NCBI GenBank assembly: GCA_046597055.1
Contig: JBKJLC010000040.1
Coordinates: 1-62,427 of the forward strand
From: Kofleriaceae bacterium
Lineage (GTDB): Bacteria; Myxococcota_A; Polyangia; Haliangiales; Haliangiaceae
Length of the DNA stretch: 62,427 nucleotides
Direction of reading: 5' to 3'
The notes under the pieces are model-generated. The model was not told where the DNA came from. It did no database searches and saw nothing but the letters and a program-made list of their open reading frames with translations. Position numbers and translations under genes: made by a program. Shown here piece after piece: positions 1 through 48,907 of the stretch (position 1 is the stretch's first letter; each line of letters opens with the position of its first letter).

Positions 1-120
1 CGGGGTGTTTGATGGAACCGTGATCAGCGCAGGGGATGAAAAGGGGAAAGCGGGCGACCATCAGTTTCATTGACCAGAACCGGCCACTTTCCCATCAAAC
101 AAATTGCTCCTGCTGACAAG

Positions 121-2857: not shown

Positions 2858-3413
2858 CGGCCCGTGTCCGGTCGCCGTGCTGATACGGATGACGAGTCGC
2901 GCCATCGGGAAGGCTGTGGATTTCTCGACCTTCCATGCCGATCACGAGACCGCCGGGTCGGATGACGCTCCGGCCGAGCTCGAGCCACTCGCTGAGGTCG
3001 AACGTCGCACGCGACACGGCGACGTCGAAATCGTGGTGTCGCGCGGGGTCGAGACGCTCGGGCTGCACCAGCATCTCGATGCCGAGCTCACGCGCGGCCG
3101 ATGACTGAAAAGCCGCCTTCTTGTGGACGGGCTCCAGGCTGGTGACGTGCACCTTGCGGCACAGCGCCAGCGGGATGCCGGGCAGGCCACCGCCGCTGCC
3201 AACGTCTATGATCTTTTGACCGTCTTCCACGAATGGAAGGATGGCCAGGCTGTCGATGACATGCACCGCGACCTCGGCGGGTGTGCGGGCGGCCGACAGG
3301 TTGATCTTCTGGTTCCAGCGCACGAAGCGCTCGACGAAGGAGATCAGCCGGCCGCTTGCGGCGCTCGCGCCGTACCCACTTGCCGCGAGCGTCAGATCAT
3401 CCGTCCACGACAT
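2835..3413 (-). CDS. rsmG: 16S rRNA m7G527 methyltransferase (GidB)
   Basis: WNQKINLS, HVIDSL, DVGSGGGLPGIPLA, KKAAF, VSRA. Confidence 0.93.
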   Translation of the reverse strand: MSWTDDLTLAASGYGASAASGRLISFVERFVRWNQKINLSAARTPAEVAVHVIDSLAILPFVEDGQKIIDVGSGGGLPGIPLALCRKVHVTSLEPVHKKAAFQSSAARELGIEMLVQPERLDPARHHDFDVAVSRATFDLSEWLELGRSVIRPGGLVIGMEGREIHSLPDGATRHPYQHGDRTRAVIAYRPA

Positions 3414-19643: not shown

Positions 19644-20654
19644 CTATGGAGCGCCCGGCGCCGGCCCGGCGTCCGGATCGTGGGGCGCGTCTGGCACCGC
19701 GGGCTCCACGCCGGCGTCGGGCGCGCGGCGGCGCGCCAGGCCGAGCGCGACGAAGCCGATCGCGACCGCCAGCCACAGCGTGGCCAGCCGGGTCAAGATG
19801 GTCGCCGCGGTCGCGGTCCCGGGATCGACCCCGGACGCGTTCTCGACCAGGAGCAGGGTCATCGCGCCCTCGGTCACGCCGAGCCCGCCGGGCAAGAACG
19901 ACAGCGCGCCGGCGATCGTGGTCGCGGCATAAATGAGCATCGCGAGGCCGAGATCGACGTGGGCGCCCGGGAACGCGTTGACGATCATCGCGAAGCCCAG
20001 GCCCTCGCAGCCCCACGCCGCGATCCCGAGCGCGGTCGACCACGCGACCGGGCGGGGCTGGCCGAGCGCGGTCAGGCTGGCATAGACCTCGTGCAGGCGC
20101 GGTCGTAGCGCGGTGAGCCGGCGCGGTCGGGTCAGCAGCTCGATCGTGCGGGTGCCGAGCCCGCGCCACAGCAGGAAGACGAACGCCAGCGCCACCATGC
20201 CGGCGGTGGCCAGCACGACCTCGAGACCGACGCCGTAGGTGGCGACCCCGATCGTCGCCACCACCAGCAGCGCGAGCAGGTCGTTGACCCGCTCGGTGAT
20301 CACGATCCCGGCCGAGCGCGCCACCGGGATCCCGGCCAGGGTCCGCAGGAGGTAGCTCTTGACCAGCTCGCCGAGCTTGCCGGGCGTCACCGCCATGCTG
20401 AACCCGGCCAGGAACACCAGCGCGCTGGTGCCGACCGGGACGACCAGCGCCTGGTGCCGGAGATACCAGTGCCAGCGCACGAAACGCAGGCCGTAGTTGG
20501 CGAGCGCGAGGCCGATCGCGGCCGCGAACGCCCACCAGCGGAAGCCACCCAGACTATCTCCGACCCCGCGCAGGTCTCCGACCAGCACGAACGCCGCCAG
20601 CACCGCGGCTACCGCGAGCACAAGCGCGAGCACCTGGCGCGGGCGAAGTCGCAC
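19644..20654 (-). CDS. Lysylphosphatidylglycerol synthase TM-domain (UPF0104 flippase-like) protein
   Basis: LRFVRW, TPGKLGELVK, ERVNDL, PGGLGVTEG, TRLATLW; multiple TMs; start approximate. Confidence 0.85.
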   Translation of the reverse strand: MRLRPRQVLALVLAVAAVLAAFVLVGDLRGVGDSLGGFRWWAFAAAIGLALANYGLRFVRWHWYLRHQALVVPVGTSALVFLAGFSMAVTPGKLGELVKSYLLRTLAGIPVARSAGIVITERVNDLLALLVVATIGVATYGVGLEVVLATAGMVALAFVFLLWRGLGTRTIELLTRPRRLTALRPRLHEVYASLTALGQPRPVAWSTALGIAAWGCEGLGFAMIVNAFPGAHVDLGLAMLIYAATTIAGALSFLPGGLGVTEGAMTLLLVENASGVDPGTATAATILTRLATLWLAVAIGFVALGLARRRAPDAGVEPAVPDAPHDPDAGPAPGAP

Positions 20655-43658: not shown

Positions 43659-44180
43659 ATGCATCGCTTGTCCACGATCGTTTCTCTCCTCGCCGCGCTT
43701 GGCGGGCTGGCCGCGTGCAACAAGAAGGAGGACAAGGCGCAGCGCGCCGAGGCCCCCATCGAGGCACGTAGCGGCAGCACGGCGACCGGCACCGGCGTCT
43801 TCGTCGAGACCTCCGAGGGCGTGCAGGCCACCATCACCGTCAGCGGGGTCGGCCCGGGGCAGCACGGCCTGCACCTGCACGAGCAGGGCGACTGCAGCGC
43901 GCCCGATGCCGAGTCGGCGGGGCCGCACTGGAACCCCGACGGCGCGGCGCACGGCGCGCCCGGGAAGCCGGCGCACGCCGGCGACTTCGGCAACATCACG
44001 GTCGGCGCGGACGGCAACGGCCGCCTCGACATCCTGCTGTCGCGCATGACGGTGCGGCCGGGGCCGCACGCGGTGGTCGGGCGCGCGCTGGTGCTGCACG
44101 AGGGCCCCGACGATCTGATGACGCAGCCGTCGGGCAACTCCGGCGCCCGGATCGGCTGCGGCGTGGTCGCCGCGAAGTAG
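43659..44180 (+). CDS. sodC: Cu/Zn superoxide dismutase lipoprotein
   Basis: LAAC lipobox, HGLHLHE, SAGPHWNP, HAGDFGN, GRALVLH, GARIGCG. Confidence 0.93.
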   Translation: MHRLSTIVSLLAALGGLAACNKKEDKAQRAEAPIEARSGSTATGTGVFVETSEGVQATITVSGVGPGQHGLHLHEQGDCSAPDAESAGPHWNPDGAAHGAPGKPAHAGDFGNITVGADGNGRLDILLSRMTVRPGPHAVVGRALVLHEGPDDLMTQPSGNSGARIGCGVVAAK

Positions 44181-44183
44181 CGG

Positions 44184-45215
44184 TCAGGCGGCCGGGCGGC
44201 GCGGCGCGTAGAACTGGCGCAGGGCCAGCCACAGCTCGATCGGATCGAAGCCGAGCAGCGCGAACGGGCTGGCGCCCGACTCCTTCATCGCGGTGCGGGC
44301 GCGATCGGCCAGCCCGACCGCGCGGTCGCGAACGCCCTGCGGCAGGAGCGCGGCGAGGCCCATCGCGCCCCGCTGCGCGAAGGCCATCGCGGTGGCGCCG
44401 CCCAACAGGCCGAGCAGCCAGGCCGGCGCCGGATCGATCACCAGGCGGCGGGCGTTGAGCTCGCGGCCGAGGGTGTCGGTGGGGCCGAGCAGGATCTTGT
44501 CGACGGTGGCGCGCTCGAGGAAGACCCCGACGCACGGCCGGGCGAAGCGCTCGCCGATCGCCCGGGTCACCCGCTTGTGGGCGGTCTGCCAGTCGCGGGC
44601 GAGCTCGGCCTCCGGGATCGCGTCCTCGATCGCGCGGTGGGTGGTGACCAGCGCGATGTCGCCCTTGCGCTTGACCGCGATGACCGACGCGGCAATCGAC
44701 CGGCGGTCGTCGTCGATCACGTAGGCGCACAGCGCGGTGTCGTCGGGCACCAGCAGATCGAACGTGCGCTGCAGTCCTTCGTAGCCGGGCGTGGGCAGCA
44801 GGTCGAGCAGCGGCGGCTCGCTCCAGACGCCCTTGCCGCTGCGTTGCTTGAGCGCGCGCAGGGCAACCAGGCCCTGTGCGGCGAGGTCTTGATCCATGCT
44901 CAGGCCGCGCTCGATCTCGGCGGTGAGCTGGGTGGCCGCGCTGGCCTCGATCACCAGCACCGCGCCGACGCCGAGCCGCCGCGCGCACGCCTGGAGGTTG
45001 GCCGGGGTCGGCGGGAGCGTGAGCTGGGTCGGGTCGACCGCGCCGCGGGCCTCGTGACCAGCGACGATCAGCCGCTCGACCTGCGCCGGTGTGCCGGTGA
45101 TCACGGCCAGCGCCCAGCGCGGCCGATCGCGCACCGCAGGAGGGATCAGCAGCTCGAGCCAGCCCGACCAGTGCCGGGCGTCGAGCTCGGTGAGTAGCAC
45201 GTCACGTGAGAGCAC
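44184..45215 (-). CDS. Hypothetical protein
   Basis: 343-codon ORF with high GC3 and globular composition; no motif recognised. Confidence 0.75.
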   Translation of the reverse strand: MLSRDVLLTELDARHWSGWLELLIPPAVRDRPRWALAVITGTPAQVERLIVAGHEARGAVDPTQLTLPPTPANLQACARRLGVGAVLVIEASAATQLTAEIERGLSMDQDLAAQGLVALRALKQRSGKGVWSEPPLLDLLPTPGYEGLQRTFDLLVPDDTALCAYVIDDDRRSIAASVIAVKRKGDIALVTTHRAIEDAIPEAELARDWQTAHKRVTRAIGERFARPCVGVFLERATVDKILLGPTDTLGRELNARRLVIDPAPAWLLGLLGGATAMAFAQRGAMGLAALLPQGVRDRAVGLADRARTAMKESGASPFALLGFDPIELWLALRQFYAPRRPAA

Positions 45216-45279
45216 CTCGGTAGGCTAGCGGGACGGCCGATAACTTGAAAGTGGCCCGGACCCGGGCCACCCTGCGCGC

Positions 45280-45780
45280 ATGAACAAGAACCTGATGCTG
45301 CTGAGTGGGGCTGTTGCCCTGGTGCTGGGAGCCGGAACCGCGCTCGCGGGCGGCTCGGAAGGCTCGATCGGCGTGGGCGCCGAGGCCCAGCTCAACGGGC
45401 TGCAGGGCCTCTCGATGAACTACGACGCGGGCCCGTTTCATGTCGGCGGCTTCCTCGCGTTCAGCGACACGGACGCCGATGACAACACCGACATCGCGGT
45501 CGGCGGCCGATTCTACTACCACCTGCATGCCACCTCGATGGCCGACTTCGGCATCGGCGGCTCGATCGGCGTCGGGCTCTTCGGGGACGAGAACCCGAAC
45601 ACTGACAACGACCAGACGTTCATGTTCATCGAGCCCGGCTTCCAGATCCGCGCGTTCCTCGCGTCGAACGTGGCGCTGTCGTTCACCGGCGGTCTCAGCC
45701 TCGGCGTGGCCGACGCGTCGGGCGTCGGGGTCAACGGCCAGCTCAACGGCGCGGCCGGTGTCCACTATTACTTCTACTGA
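45280..45780 (+). CDS. Small outer-membrane beta-barrel protein
   Basis: Signal peptide ending ALA, alternating beta-strands, aromatic C-terminus VHYYFY. Confidence 0.8.
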   Translation: MNKNLMLLSGAVALVLGAGTALAGGSEGSIGVGAEAQLNGLQGLSMNYDAGPFHVGGFLAFSDTDADDNTDIAVGGRFYYHLHATSMADFGIGGSIGVGLFGDENPNTDNDQTFMFIEPGFQIRAFLASNVALSFTGGLSLGVADASGVGVNGQLNGAAGVHYYFY

Positions 45781-46111
45781 TCGGCTGCGCGCGGCGATCG
45801 CGCCGGGCAGCTCGCTGTCGACCGCCCTCCGGGCCGGGCTCGCGCTCGACCCGGCCTGGTCGGTCGTCGACGTGATCATCCAGGACGAGTTCACCCACGA
45901 CGTCGTGATGCAGGCGGCGCCGGACGGGCCCGCGCTCGTGCTCGACTGCACGTGACTGGGGCGCGTCGACGCGGTCTCCGTGTGGGACCATCGCCCGAGC
46001 GCTGACGAGCTGCTCACGACGCGGGTCACGGCGGGGTGGACGCCGACGCCGACCTCGACCGTCGATGGCGACGTGGTGATGGGTTTCGCGTGCAAGCTGC
46101 CGCGGCCCTGA
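45758..46111 (+). CDS. Candidate selenoprotein, 117 aa, in-frame TGA at 45953-45955
   Basis: ..DVIIQDEFTHDVV..LVLDCT-UGA-LGRVDAVSVWDHRPSADELL..; 47 of 51 post-UGA codons end in G/C; SECIS-like hairpin follows. GTG start is tentative. Confidence 0.7.
45956..45999 (+). promoter_or_regulatory. Bacterial SECIS-like stem-loop
   Basis: Lower stem CTGGGGCG/CGCCCGAG; upper stem GGTCTC/GGGACC; loop CGTGT begins 23 nt after the UGA. Confidence 0.6.
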
Positions 46112-46116
46112 CCGGG

Positions 46117-48054
46117 CTACTCGACGATCAGCATGCGCGCGTCGTGGGGACCGACCGGGATCGCCACGATTCCGGGTTCGCCCTCGTCGCTGAAGCGGGC
46201 CTGATCGAGCACGTCGCGCAGCCGGGTGCCGGTCGGCACCACCAGGCGCGCGATGTGGCGGCGATCGGCGGGGTGGACCAGGAAGACCGCGCGCACCGCG
46301 CCGTCGCCCGGCTGCGCGAACGCGTGGGCGTGGACGCTGCTCGGGCGCTCGACGAACCAGGCCTCCGGCGGGGCCAGCGCGGCCAGGTCCGCGGCGAGCC
46401 CGGCCAGATCGTCGAGCGAGCCCGGCTGCATCAGGCCGGCCTTGCGCGGCGGCGGCAGGTCGTCGCCGAGCGGCTGGCCCAGCTCGTCGACGGTCGGCAT
46501 CTCCGGGCCGAGGACGATCACGCGGCGGGCGTCGGCGGCCTGCTTGAGCGTGCGCCACAGCGTGCGGTCGACCCGGGCCTGGGTCGGCACGACGATCGCG
46601 CGCGCGGCCAGGAACCGGTCGAGCCCGGCGCTCTCGTCGACGATCACGTAGGGCACCCGGGCCAGGTCGAGCGCGGCCGCGACCGCGGCGAACCAGCGGC
46701 GGTGGGTGATCGCGGCCGGGTCACGCCCGAGCTCGGCCGAGCCGGCCGGTCCGAGCCCGAGCAACTCGCCGACGATCGGCGGCAACGGGTCGAGCAGCGA
46801 CGAGGCCAGCCCGTGGCGGACGTCGGCGCGCGAGCACACCAGCGCGACCGGGGCGACCCGGCGCAGGCGGGTCCAGTCGAGCGCCGCCAGCGCGGCGAGG
46901 ATCGGCGCGATCCAGCGCGCGGCCGGCAGCGGGTTGCCGCTGGCGTCGAGCGCGCCGCCGACCCAGCGATCCCGGTTCACGCCCATGTAGAACGACAGGC
47001 CGCGGACGCCGGCGGCGAGCAGGGTCAGCGTGACCGCGCGCTGGTCGTCGTCCTCGAACGGCAGGAGATACGGGACGAAGCCGGTGCCGAGCTCGGGCAC
47101 CAGCGGCACCGACGCGGTCGAGCCGACCAGGTGCAGGCCCCGCCGGCGCACGGTGTCGAGCCCGGCGGCCGAGGCGTACACGTCGATGCCGACCGGGCCG
47201 CCGACCGCGCGCTCGAGCCCGGCCAGATCGGCGAACCACGGCTCGCCCGGCGGCAGGTTGCCGAAGTGCGCGACCCCACCGAGGCCGGCGACGTCGAGCG
47301 CGACCGCGAACCGGCCCAGCGCGTGGGCGAGGTACGCGTCCTTGAACCGCACCCAGGCCGCGCACACCGCGGCGGTCTCGGCGGTCCAGGTGCGGGGCGG
47401 CGGCGCCTCGTGGCGCAGGTGCCACCAGGCGATCGCGTCGGGGTGGTAGTCGTGATCGAAGGCGCCGAGGCGGAAGAACATCTGCGCCTCGTTGTCGATC
47501 TGCAGCGCGACCACCGGGCCATCGGGCCACAGCCGTGGCCGCACGATCTCGGCGAGCGCGCCGAACCAGCCCTCGACCTCGTCGTGGAACTTCTCGCTCG
47601 CGTACGACGGCACCGGGAACCCGCGCGGCGGCGCCGGCAGCCACACCGGCCCGCCGTGGTTGCCGCGGGCCTGGATCTCGGGATCGCGCAGCACCCGCTC
47701 GGGGAAACCGAAGAAGGTCAGCTCGGCATTGATGTGGGGGCCGGGCCGCAGCGCCGCGACCAGCCCGGCGGCGGCGACCGCGTCGAGCCAGGCGCCCAGA
47801 TCGCGATCGCCGGTCCAGTCGTACGAGCGATCCGCGCGCTCGTGCACCGACCACGGCACGTACGACTCGACCACGGTGACCCCGAGCCGCGCCAGCCCGT
47901 CGAGGCAGCGCCGCCACGCCGCGCGCGGCGTGCGCCAGTAGTGCATCGCGGCGCCGTAGAACGGCACGTGCCGCGGCGCCGCGCCGGCTTCGCCCGGCGG
48001 CCCGGCGAGGACTAGGCCGTCGTCGTCGAACCAGGTGCGGCGATGTTCTTCCAC
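46117..48054 (-). CDS. Beta-galactosidase-like glycoside hydrolase (GH35-type)
   Basis: AMHYWR, YVPWSVHE, LRPGPHINAE, QIDNE. Confidence 0.8.
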   Translation of the reverse strand: MEEHRRTWFDDDGLVLAGPPGEAGAAPRHVPFYGAAMHYWRTPRAAWRRCLDGLARLGVTVVESYVPWSVHERADRSYDWTGDRDLGAWLDAVAAAGLVAALRPGPHINAELTFFGFPERVLRDPEIQARGNHGGPVWLPAPPRGFPVPSYASEKFHDEVEGWFGALAEIVRPRLWPDGPVVALQIDNEAQMFFRLGAFDHDYHPDAIAWWHLRHEAPPPRTWTAETAAVCAAWVRFKDAYLAHALGRFAVALDVAGLGGVAHFGNLPPGEPWFADLAGLERAVGGPVGIDVYASAAGLDTVRRRGLHLVGSTASVPLVPELGTGFVPYLLPFEDDDQRAVTLTLLAAGVRGLSFYMGVNRDRWVGGALDASGNPLPAARWIAPILAALAALDWTRLRRVAPVALVCSRADVRHGLASSLLDPLPPIVGELLGLGPAGSAELGRDPAAITHRRWFAAVAAALDLARVPYVIVDESAGLDRFLAARAIVVPTQARVDRTLWRTLKQAADARRVIVLGPEMPTVDELGQPLGDDLPPPRKAGLMQPGSLDDLAGLAADLAALAPPEAWFVERPSSVHAHAFAQPGDGAVRAVFLVHPADRRHIARLVVPTGTRLRDVLDQARFSDEGEPGIVAIPVGPHDARMLIVE

Positions 48055-48830
48055 GTGCGGTCCTCGAGAATGAAGCGGCTGGGGCCCACCGCCAGCGGAT
48101 GATCGGCGGGCATCGGGGCGAGATCGCCGGTCCCCGCGGTGACGTACTCGGGGTCCCACGGCAGCAGCAGCGCGAAGCCGCCCGCGGGCAGCGGCGCCAT
48201 GCGCGGCATGATCGGATGCGGCGCCCGGCTCCGCTCGGCGGCGAGCGCGACCACCTCGTCGACGGTCCGCGCGCCGGACAGCTCGGCCAGGGTGCGGATC
48301 TGCGGCGGCGGCAGCGCCAGCTCGCCGGCGCGGGCGAGCGCCGCGGCCGGGGTCAGCCAGGCCTCGTCGACCGTCTCGTGCGAGTCGAACGACGGCGCCT
48401 GGTCGGCGGGAAGGACCGCGACGTAGAAGCGCGCGCTGAACCGCTTGCCCTCGGCGCTCGGCGTGATCCAGTGGCTGTAGTAGGCGAGCTGGCCGGGATC
48501 GAGCACCAGGCCGGCCTCGGCGAGCAAGGCGGCCAGCGGCTCGCCGGCCAGGGCCCGCAGGCGCAGCGCCGCGGCCAGGTCGCGGTCGACCGCGGTGGTG
48601 GCCAGCAGCACGCCGGCCTCCTCGAACAGCTCGCGCGCGGCGGTGAGGCGCAGATCGTCCTCGCCGGCGTCGACCGCGCCACCGGGAAAGACGTAGGCGC
48701 CGCCCATGAACGACGCGCTCTTGCGCCGGCGCAGCAGGAACACCTCGAAGCCGGCGGCGCGGTCGAGGTCCGGGCTCGGCGCCGCGCGGAGCAGGATCAC
48801 GGTCGCGGCGTCGCGCGGCGTCGAGAACAC
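48012..48830 (-). CDS. NUDIX hydrolase
   Basis: AATVILLR, FPGGAVD..AARELFEEAGV, HWITP, RFSARFY. Confidence 0.88.
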   Translation of the reverse strand: MFSTPRDAATVILLRAAPSPDLDRAAGFEVFLLRRRKSASFMGGAYVFPGGAVDAGEDDLRLTAARELFEEAGVLLATTAVDRDLAAALRLRALAGEPLAALLAEAGLVLDPGQLAYYSHWITPSAEGKRFSARFYVAVLPADQAPSFDSHETVDEAWLTPAAALARAGELALPPPQIRTLAELSGARTVDEVVALAAERSRAPHPIMPRMAPLPAGGFALLLPWDPEYVTAGTGDLAPMPADHPLAVGPSRFILEDRTWKNIAAPGSTTTA

Positions 48831-48907
48831 GGCTGGTGGTAGCACTGCGTCCGGGTCGGGCGCAATCGGCTCGCATGGCCGGGCCCGGCCGTGCTAACCG
48901 AGTCTCC

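Follow-up and report, generated by a model that had tools for sequence, protein, structure and literature searches.

A TGA-interrupted gene and its surroundings

The window, by which we mean the entire 62,427-nucleotide stretch of Kofleriaceae DNA analyzed here, carries on its forward strand a gene at 45758..46111 (117 codons plus stop) whose frame runs through an in-frame TGA at 45953..45955, the putative selenocysteine (Sec) codon, U66. The TGA is preceded by the segment DEFTHDVV...LVLDCT and followed by 51 open codons up to a terminal TGA at 46109-46111, with G or C in the third position of all 57 codons before it (45782-45952) and of 47 of the 51 after it. Only 5 nt separate the frame from a convergent ORF ending at 46117. 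An initial annotation of the region had proposed a hidden selenoprotein; its placement of the TGA, its counts for the 51 codons that follow and its 5-nt gap were all recovered in the window. Three further features lie on the same strand within the gene, namely the invariant Asp43-Glu44 pair (45884..45889) in the turn that joins predicted strands 1 and 2, U66 itself lying in the one that joins strands 3 and 4; a SECIS-like upper stem-loop, GGUCUC-CGUGU-GGGACC (45973..45989, loop at 45979-45983); and Cys112 (46091..46093), a candidate resolving cysteine in a C-terminal G-[HFY]-A-(A)-C motif.

The genome has one copy of this gene, and by inspection the read-through product has neither a signal peptide nor a membrane segment. 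A start at GTG 45758 entails a 23-nt overlap with the upstream gene and gives an N-terminal length equal to that of close homologues; CTG 45785 offers an alternative start codon, and the choice of GTG is uncertain. The product of about 117 residues proposed earlier agrees with the homology across the TGA and with the 117 codons counted from GTG 45758, and shares the uncertainty of the start codon. Gene callers use the same start and report a 65-aa N-terminal half (P0002 cluster), and the Myxococcus xanthus copy stands in RefSeq as a 72-aa hypothetical protein (WP_140865220.1 / WP_171441911.1).

Immediately upstream, at 45280..45780 of the forward strand, lies a gene for a small outer-membrane-barrel-like protein of 166 aa, whose N-terminus resembles a signal peptide and which carries YYFY at its C-terminus. 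This protein matched no family in Pfam, NCBIfam or PHROGs. The initial annotation regarded the two genes as co-transcribed. This is possible locally; the barrel gene is however adjacent to the family just in the window and in 2 of the 68 other genome loci (L007 and L046), which argues against a functional link, and it is probably not part of the system. In those two loci it is also accompanied by the gene for a family-less 343-aa protein (44184-45215, reverse strand). The remaining flanking genes, encoding a Cu/Zn superoxide dismutase (43659-44180, forward strand), a GH35-like protein (46117-48012, reverse strand) and a NUDIX hydrolase (48012-48845, reverse strand), do not recur beside the family elsewhere. 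On the whole, clustering of the flanking ORFs of 69 genome loci and a Pfam search with 113 of 121 picked neighbours recovered no recurring partner, and a scan of 45150-46250 detected neither a sigma-70 promoter nor an intrinsic terminator pattern.

RNA reads are available for the M. xanthus orthologue (L016) from three raw-read runs of one study on a related strain, and cover both sides of its TGA. In one run, reads whose mate orientation fits the sense strand are 26-41 deep over 2961-3317 as against 7-17 just outside, and the ends of the molecule fall near 2970 and 3339, close to the gene limits of 2950-3330. Strand separation is poor in the other two runs, whose reads extend over the flanks too. 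On this basis transcription is modestly supported; for read-through the reads offer no support.

Conservation of the TGA column and its substitutes

A scan of genome contigs recovered 51 loci from Myxococcota, Acidobacteriota, Planctomycetota and a few records labelled otherwise. All 49 true homologues with a readable column have TGA in it, with homology on both sides. One of the other two (L051) was rejected as spurious (E 4e-4; a TGT followed by an immediate stop), and L046 is corrupt at the relevant place and has no readable column. In the latter, the 5' half of the orthologue is replaced over 2640-2995 by low-complexity G/C sequence, probably an artefact of assembly polishing. We combined the genome-contig loci with those that a profile search across the phylum had yielded and with the 80 best of 537 metagenome matches, to give a set of 150 loci. 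The window's own locus is among them, as are some duplicates; of 148 downstream sequences, 141 are distinct. The column is TGA in 149 of the 150 loci, the remaining locus lacks the column, and neither TAA nor TAG occurs in any, whereas the terminal stops of the 149 are distributed over TGA (98), TAG (36) and TAA (12), with 3 frames left open. The conservation on both sides of the TGA that the initial annotation had proposed as a check is present in these loci, and the expected TGA or Cys is seen in the column, two close orthologues (L203 and L204) having TGC and TGT.

The conserved context of the TGA is T-U-x-G, with Thr at position -1 in 143 of the 149 loci. Position -2 is occupied by Thr in 82, Cys in 37, Ser in 14, Ala in 11 and other residues in 5, so that the CxU motif which the initial annotation had read in the window's copy is a lineage-specific feature, and the conserved Cys two residues before Sec that would define a CxU redox motif is absent from the family as a whole (37/149). 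A Cys in the C-terminal stretch is kept in 129 of the 145 TGA loci long enough to score and is missing in 16, including several members from Planctomycetota and Acidobacteriota.

Gene prediction pipelines have in effect adopted a different reading, in which translation truly ends at the TGA to give a product of 65 residues, and the downstream conservation reflects an RNA element or a separate small gene. Both RefSeq and metagenome gene callers annotate the gene in this way, and TGA is the commonest stop in these genomes, closing 4353 of 6053 long ORFs in that of the window. Several observations nevertheless render this reading highly improbable. TAA and TAG never replace TGA in the column across the 149 loci, and codon +1 is no conserved start, being Leu in 128 loci (including CTC and CTT), Asn in 8, Phe in 7, Gln in 3, Met in 2 and His in 1. 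The triplet periodicity continues past the hairpin: among 565 close pairs, changes beyond the hairpin fall on codon positions 1, 2 and 3 in the proportion 1981/1448/4478, and single-base changes comprise 3276 synonymous against 1148 non-synonymous ones. This third-position variation and synonymous excess indicate that the downstream part is protein-coding. Furthermore, the Cys orthologues are single ORFs, and the predicted sheet needs both halves.

These Cys orthologues come from a sample of 151 genomes of a second phylum (that of genome G028), where ten genomes carry the family, eight with TGA and two without a stop in the column, L203 with TGC and L204 with TGT. A broader survey started from 928 representatives obtained by profile search, of which the best 150 were sorted by halves: 62 are N-terminal halves (61 of them ending at the column), 61 are C-terminal halves and 27 cross the column. 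The latter are by construction the non-TGA minority, being database proteins whose residues were read at the protein level; by eye, they have Cys in 12, Trp in 4, Ser in 4, Arg in 2, Gly in 1 and an ambiguous residue in 4, i.e. in 15 of the 27 the column is neither Cys nor Sec, or is ambiguous. Trp or Arg at this position had been named at the outset as evidence against Sec; the two occur in a minority of database proteins (4 Trp and 2 Arg of 27). The Trp forms derive from short contigs of 510-4327 nt and may represent TGA translated by the gene caller under code 4. In a quick tree, 21 of the 27 are scattered among the TGA forms, mostly on long end branches, with many forks left open.

A more distant family, which first surfaced as weak matches in the phylum search, carries T-N-C-N-G-G with TGC or TGT in the column. 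In a profile alignment it matches the Sec family with a probability of 97.7%, with U set against C. Its members, of about 145 aa (loci L084-L094 and L175-L201), are strongly conserved and are typified by the motif H-W-x-Q-G-E-F-H-H-D ... T-N-C-N-G-G, three near-invariant Cys and a C-terminal R-Q-x-G-G-G-W; Glu44 of the Asp43-Glu44 pair is invariant here as well. This sister family comprises at least 2435 proteins, all of those whose names were shown being 'hypothetical', and has no match in Pfam or NCBIfam. Its 1.5-kb flanks yielded no recurring partner, and none of the six longer proteins inspected for fusions was informative.

The downstream hairpin and the selenocysteine machinery

In the window, the loop CGUGU occupies +24..+28, with a 23-nt spacer from the UGA; the stem, loop and spacing of the two-stem hairpin are as the initial annotation had described them. 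Its further statement that the geometry fits a bacterial SECIS is borne out: both registers seen in the family (see below) agree with the bSECIS model (PMC13188914, section 5 and Fig. 2 legend) and the upper stem covaries. The minimum-energy fold of the window differs, however. ViennaRNA prefers a competing hairpin with a UCU loop at -23.1 kcal/mol, in which the proposed loop is buried, and the best fold retaining the described stem reaches -19.7 kcal/mol, 3.4 above the minimum, with pair probabilities of about 0.01. The UCU-loop hairpin was rejected as a conserved structure, being 84% paired without any compensatory change among the 88 homologues that share the window's register.

The distinct sequences divide by codon +8 into an Ala type (51) and a Ser type (88, including the window), the two that remain showing a GGUC-loop hairpin by inspection. 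The loop lies at +18..21 in the Ala type, typically as an E. coli-like GGUC, and at +24..28 in the Ser type, typically as CGUGU. Covariation was tested for the upper stem. In the Ala type, +12..17 pairs with +22..27 around a loop of GGUC (48) or AGUU (3), and this stem is 98.6% paired with 31 compensatory cells; none of 500 shuffles scored as high and slid controls were far lower. The Ser-type upper stem, with loops CGUGU (79), CGGGU (6) and GGUCU (3), is 98.5% paired and has compensatory changes in 3 pairs, some of which alter amino acids; again 0 of 500 shuffles were as high, with the signal being thinner at 6 cells and two slid controls reaching a similar covariation score. The first and fourth loop bases covary as a pair in the Ser type (C-G in 85, G-C in 3) and are complementary in both types. 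The hairpin pattern is present in 133 of 139 family members as compared to 56 of the 4353 long ORFs ending in TGA and 12 of the 1520 ending in TAG in the window's genome, a contrast that is inflated because the pattern was defined after the family had been seen. In the two Cys orthologues the loop signature has degenerated to AGUA and AAUC. No Rfam family was matched at the gathering score.

The genome of the window encodes selA, tRNA-Sec, selB and a TGA-containing selD, all scoring over the cut-offs, so that the check for selABCD proposed in the initial annotation came out in its favour. The bin has a contamination of 7.55%, and hence these contigs are not proven to originate from the same cell; selA is found in 6 of 6 genomes of the same taxonomic family. 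Across 50 carrier genomes, most of them incomplete assemblies, selA is present in all 50 (49 over the cut-off), selB in 45 and tRNA-Sec in 43. In a sample of 401 genomes of the same phylum, 247 are selA-positive and all 21 carriers (20 with the TGA form and one fragment) are among them; the search scored 10 candidates per genome and may have missed copies. The sister family shows the complementary pattern, occurring in 23 of the 401 genomes, of which 6 are selA-positive and none has the TGA form. The naive Fisher p values, 3e-5 for carriers versus selA and 6e-4 for the sister family, overstate these associations since related genomes are not independent. In the second phylum selA is found in 10 of 10 carriers, a weak test as 121 of the 151 genomes have selA anyway, a base rate that counts one genome flagged as unpublished (G474). 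The sister family probably does the same job as the Sec family, mostly in genomes without selA.

Several observations on other loci of the same genome may be recorded here. On contig C260, a TGA at 45990 of the reverse strand completes a CxxU motif (N-E-C-E-F-U) and is followed by a GGUC-loop hairpin at +18; the product is presumably an AhpD-type selenoprotein. On contig C83, a TGA at 20567 of the forward strand starts a UxxC motif (H-F-G-U-L-F-C) in what we take to be a peroxiredoxin-like protein, with an AGUU-loop hairpin at +26. The selD gene likewise has a GGUC loop by inspection, and a Sec-type formate dehydrogenase was not found in this genome. Contig C145 bears an array of tRNA genes, about 19 in a stretch of 6.6 kb (~67800-74400) and all on the same strand, an arrangement known from phages or integrated elements. 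ARAGORN also reported a second tRNA with a TCA anticodon, c[10901,10993], which is absent from the list of the tRNA-Sec model and is probably a false call.

A reading in which UGA is translated as Trp, Cys or some other amino acid instead of Sec, through a near-cognate tRNA or a changed code, draws on the Trp seen in 4 of the 27 full-length database relatives. It appears very unlikely in view of the use of TGA as the most frequent stop both at the end of these genes and across the genome, the predominance of Cys among the substitutes, the confinement of carriers to selA-positive genomes in the samples, and the loss of the hairpin signature where the codon is Cys. From comparative sequence evidence of this kind, selenium is almost certainly inserted at the UGA. 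We favor, with a probability of roughly 0.9, the reading that the gene encodes one protein in which UGA is read as Sec by the ordinary bacterial route. SelB would bind the hairpin just 3' of the UGA and deliver Sec-tRNA, to yield one cytoplasmic protein of about 110-130 residues.

Predicted fold, possible function and comparison with known selenoproteins

AlphaFold2 predicts a single compact domain (mean pLDDT 94) with two helices, a meander of four antiparallel strands, a further helix, and a short C-terminal hairpin and helix. This meander topology would place U66 and Asp43-Glu44 on the same edge of the sheet. The window protein had no family match in Pfam, NCBIfam (June 2026 release), PADLOC, PHROGs or PDB sequences, and 35 members searched against family HMMs gave scattered weak matches, the best being to a Nif11 leader model (E 0.00066, 3 members). 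Foldseek with the model of the Sec family returned nothing at E 0.001 or better against PDB and viral models. VIA-align ranks OsmE highest (Z 6.8, rmsd 3.1, 80 aligned), then a BLIP-like protein at Z 6.2 and the immunity protein BtiO at Z 5.7, all below the threshold of 8, under which the tool speaks of a common arrangement. A search of the ESM Atlas with a close Cys homologue gave no usable match. The missing fold match does not show that the fold is new. The sister family is likewise confidently predicted, with the same core topology; its model has no Foldseek match at E 0.001 or better and a best VIA-align Z of 4.7, with BLIP/BamE/OsmE-like folds at Z 3.8-4.2 and not ranked first, while the ESM Atlas lists weak SUKH/SMI1 look-alikes (0.90-0.91) that serve as a lead only.

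The gene moves alone and keeps Sec, the preceding Thr, Asp-Glu and a second Cys, which points to a stand-alone enzyme. As the function of the protein, we rank a selenol enzyme with a C-terminal resolving Cys first among the readings considered, at somewhat short of an even chance. The U66 selenol would act as the nucleophile in the β-hairpin turn after the conserved Thr, with the invariant Asp-Glu in the neighboring turn, and the C-terminal Cys would resolve the selenenyl-sulfide; on this basis we propose that its substrate is a small oxidised or electrophilic molecule, which the protein would reduce or detoxify. Neither a conserved neighbour, an informative fusion in the sister family, nor a fold match above Z 6.8 lends support to a redox function.

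Two other functions of a selenoprotein deserve consideration. In the first, ranked behind the enzyme and rather unlikely, the protein would serve to bind or transfer a soft metal or a metalloid (Cu, Hg, As or Zn) through U66, Asp43, Glu44, His47 and the C-terminal His or Cys, and would not be a redox catalyst. The conserved residues are all possible ligands, the sister family retains three Cys and three His, and for about 20% of the known families PMC13188914 gives a predicted binding of atoms or chemical groups, with metals making up about 70% of those cases. Against this, no metal-resistance or transport gene recurs among the 113 neighbours, and MerB-like or other metal-binding selenoprotein models are not matched. 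In the second, which we consider improbable, it would act on another protein, either as a binding module or as a covalent trap, akin to the small BLIP, BamE and immunity-protein scaffolds, to which it bears a faint resemblance. The identity of the best structural neighbours, OsmE, the BLIP-like protein and BtiO, and the SUKH/SMI1 look-alikes of the sister family are in line with such a role; however, all Z scores are below 8, the Atlas matches have fewer than 140 of 256 features in common, toxin genes do not recur beside the family, and these scaffolds are not the first-ranked neighbours of the sister-family model (best Z 4.7).

The initial annotation had assigned the protein to a selenoprotein family that it did not recognise, and this is borne out by the conservation across the TGA, the TGA or Cys in the column, the Sec machinery and the lack of a match in Pfam and NCBIfam. 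Table 1 of PMC13188914 (119 families), as far as its rows give a motif or description, has no entry corresponding to the family; rows defined by cd or PTHR identifiers alone were compared by name and motif and not by sequence. The families of Haft and Tolstoy 2025 appear in that table, going by its available part. The family is not named in the available text on deep-Sep (PMC12013277) or BSepDB (PMC13326102). Our literature search found no description, and Haft and Tolstoy 2025, Table S2 of BSepDB and the candidates of Deng et al. 2026 could contain one. The family is absent from the catalogues checked.

It stands at about even odds that the family founds a selenoenzyme class of its own, with a scaffold related neither to thioredoxin nor to the catalogued selenoproteins, in which Sec dominates and has reverted to Cys several times, the Cys sister serves as a replacement where the Sec machinery is missing, and the SECIS loop has moved by two codons through an Ala-to-Ser change. 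Most of the hosts belong to lineages known to be aerobic. If the above is correct, the protein would be among the few for which largely aerobic soil and sludge bacteria like Myxococcus keep the Sec machinery. PMC13188914 describes the selenoproteins of bacteria as thioredoxin-like for the most part, commoner in anaerobes and much less numerous than their Cys homologues, with Sec-to-Cys reversion being rare; the present family contrasts with that account in its predicted fold, in its largely aerobic hosts, in the dominance of Sec among close homologues and in its scattered Cys forms. It would represent a widespread selenoprotein family of myxobacteria, acidobacteria and planctomycetes that annotation pipelines have split in two, would supply two naturally occurring SECIS registers for one and the same coding sequence, and would offer a handle on the unnamed Cys family. 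As it occurs in the genetically tractable M. xanthus, these proposals are testable at once.

Among known systems, the CxU selenoproteins, namely rhodanese form 3 (NF041203), the UshA-like proteins (NF041198), ferredoxin-thioredoxin reductase (NF041072) and thioredoxin-like Sec.1 (PF13192), resemble the window's copy in its C-T-U, whereas the family matches none of their models and its predicted fold is neither that of thioredoxin nor of rhodanese. The UxxC, CxxU and UxxT motifs of the thioredoxin fold are likewise absent, the topology differs, and no thioredoxin is among the best rows of the fold searches, beyond which one may still lie. The MerB-like organometallic lyase SaoL (NF040728) was not matched by any of 35 members, and has CU where the present family has T-U-x-G, the latter also being without a conserved operon. 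The sister family shares the homologous core, the predicted topology and the column, with Cys in place of Sec, but differs in its C-terminal third, resides mostly in selA-negative genomes and is itself uncharacterised. The closest parallel in decoding is Sec insertion of the Escherichia coli fdhF type, with an in-frame UGA, a hairpin in the coding region directly downstream, selABCD in the genome and a G-U in a small apical loop, here 17 or 23 nt from the UGA; this G-U corresponds to the G23/U24 described for E. coli in the available text of PMC8659212. In contrast to that system, no conserved bulged U comparable to U17 of E. coli has been established in these hairpins, and two loop registers six bases apart coexist within one family. 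The decoding is canonical; the unusual features of the family are its scaffold, the range of its hosts, the complementary family with Cys and the presence of two SECIS registers.
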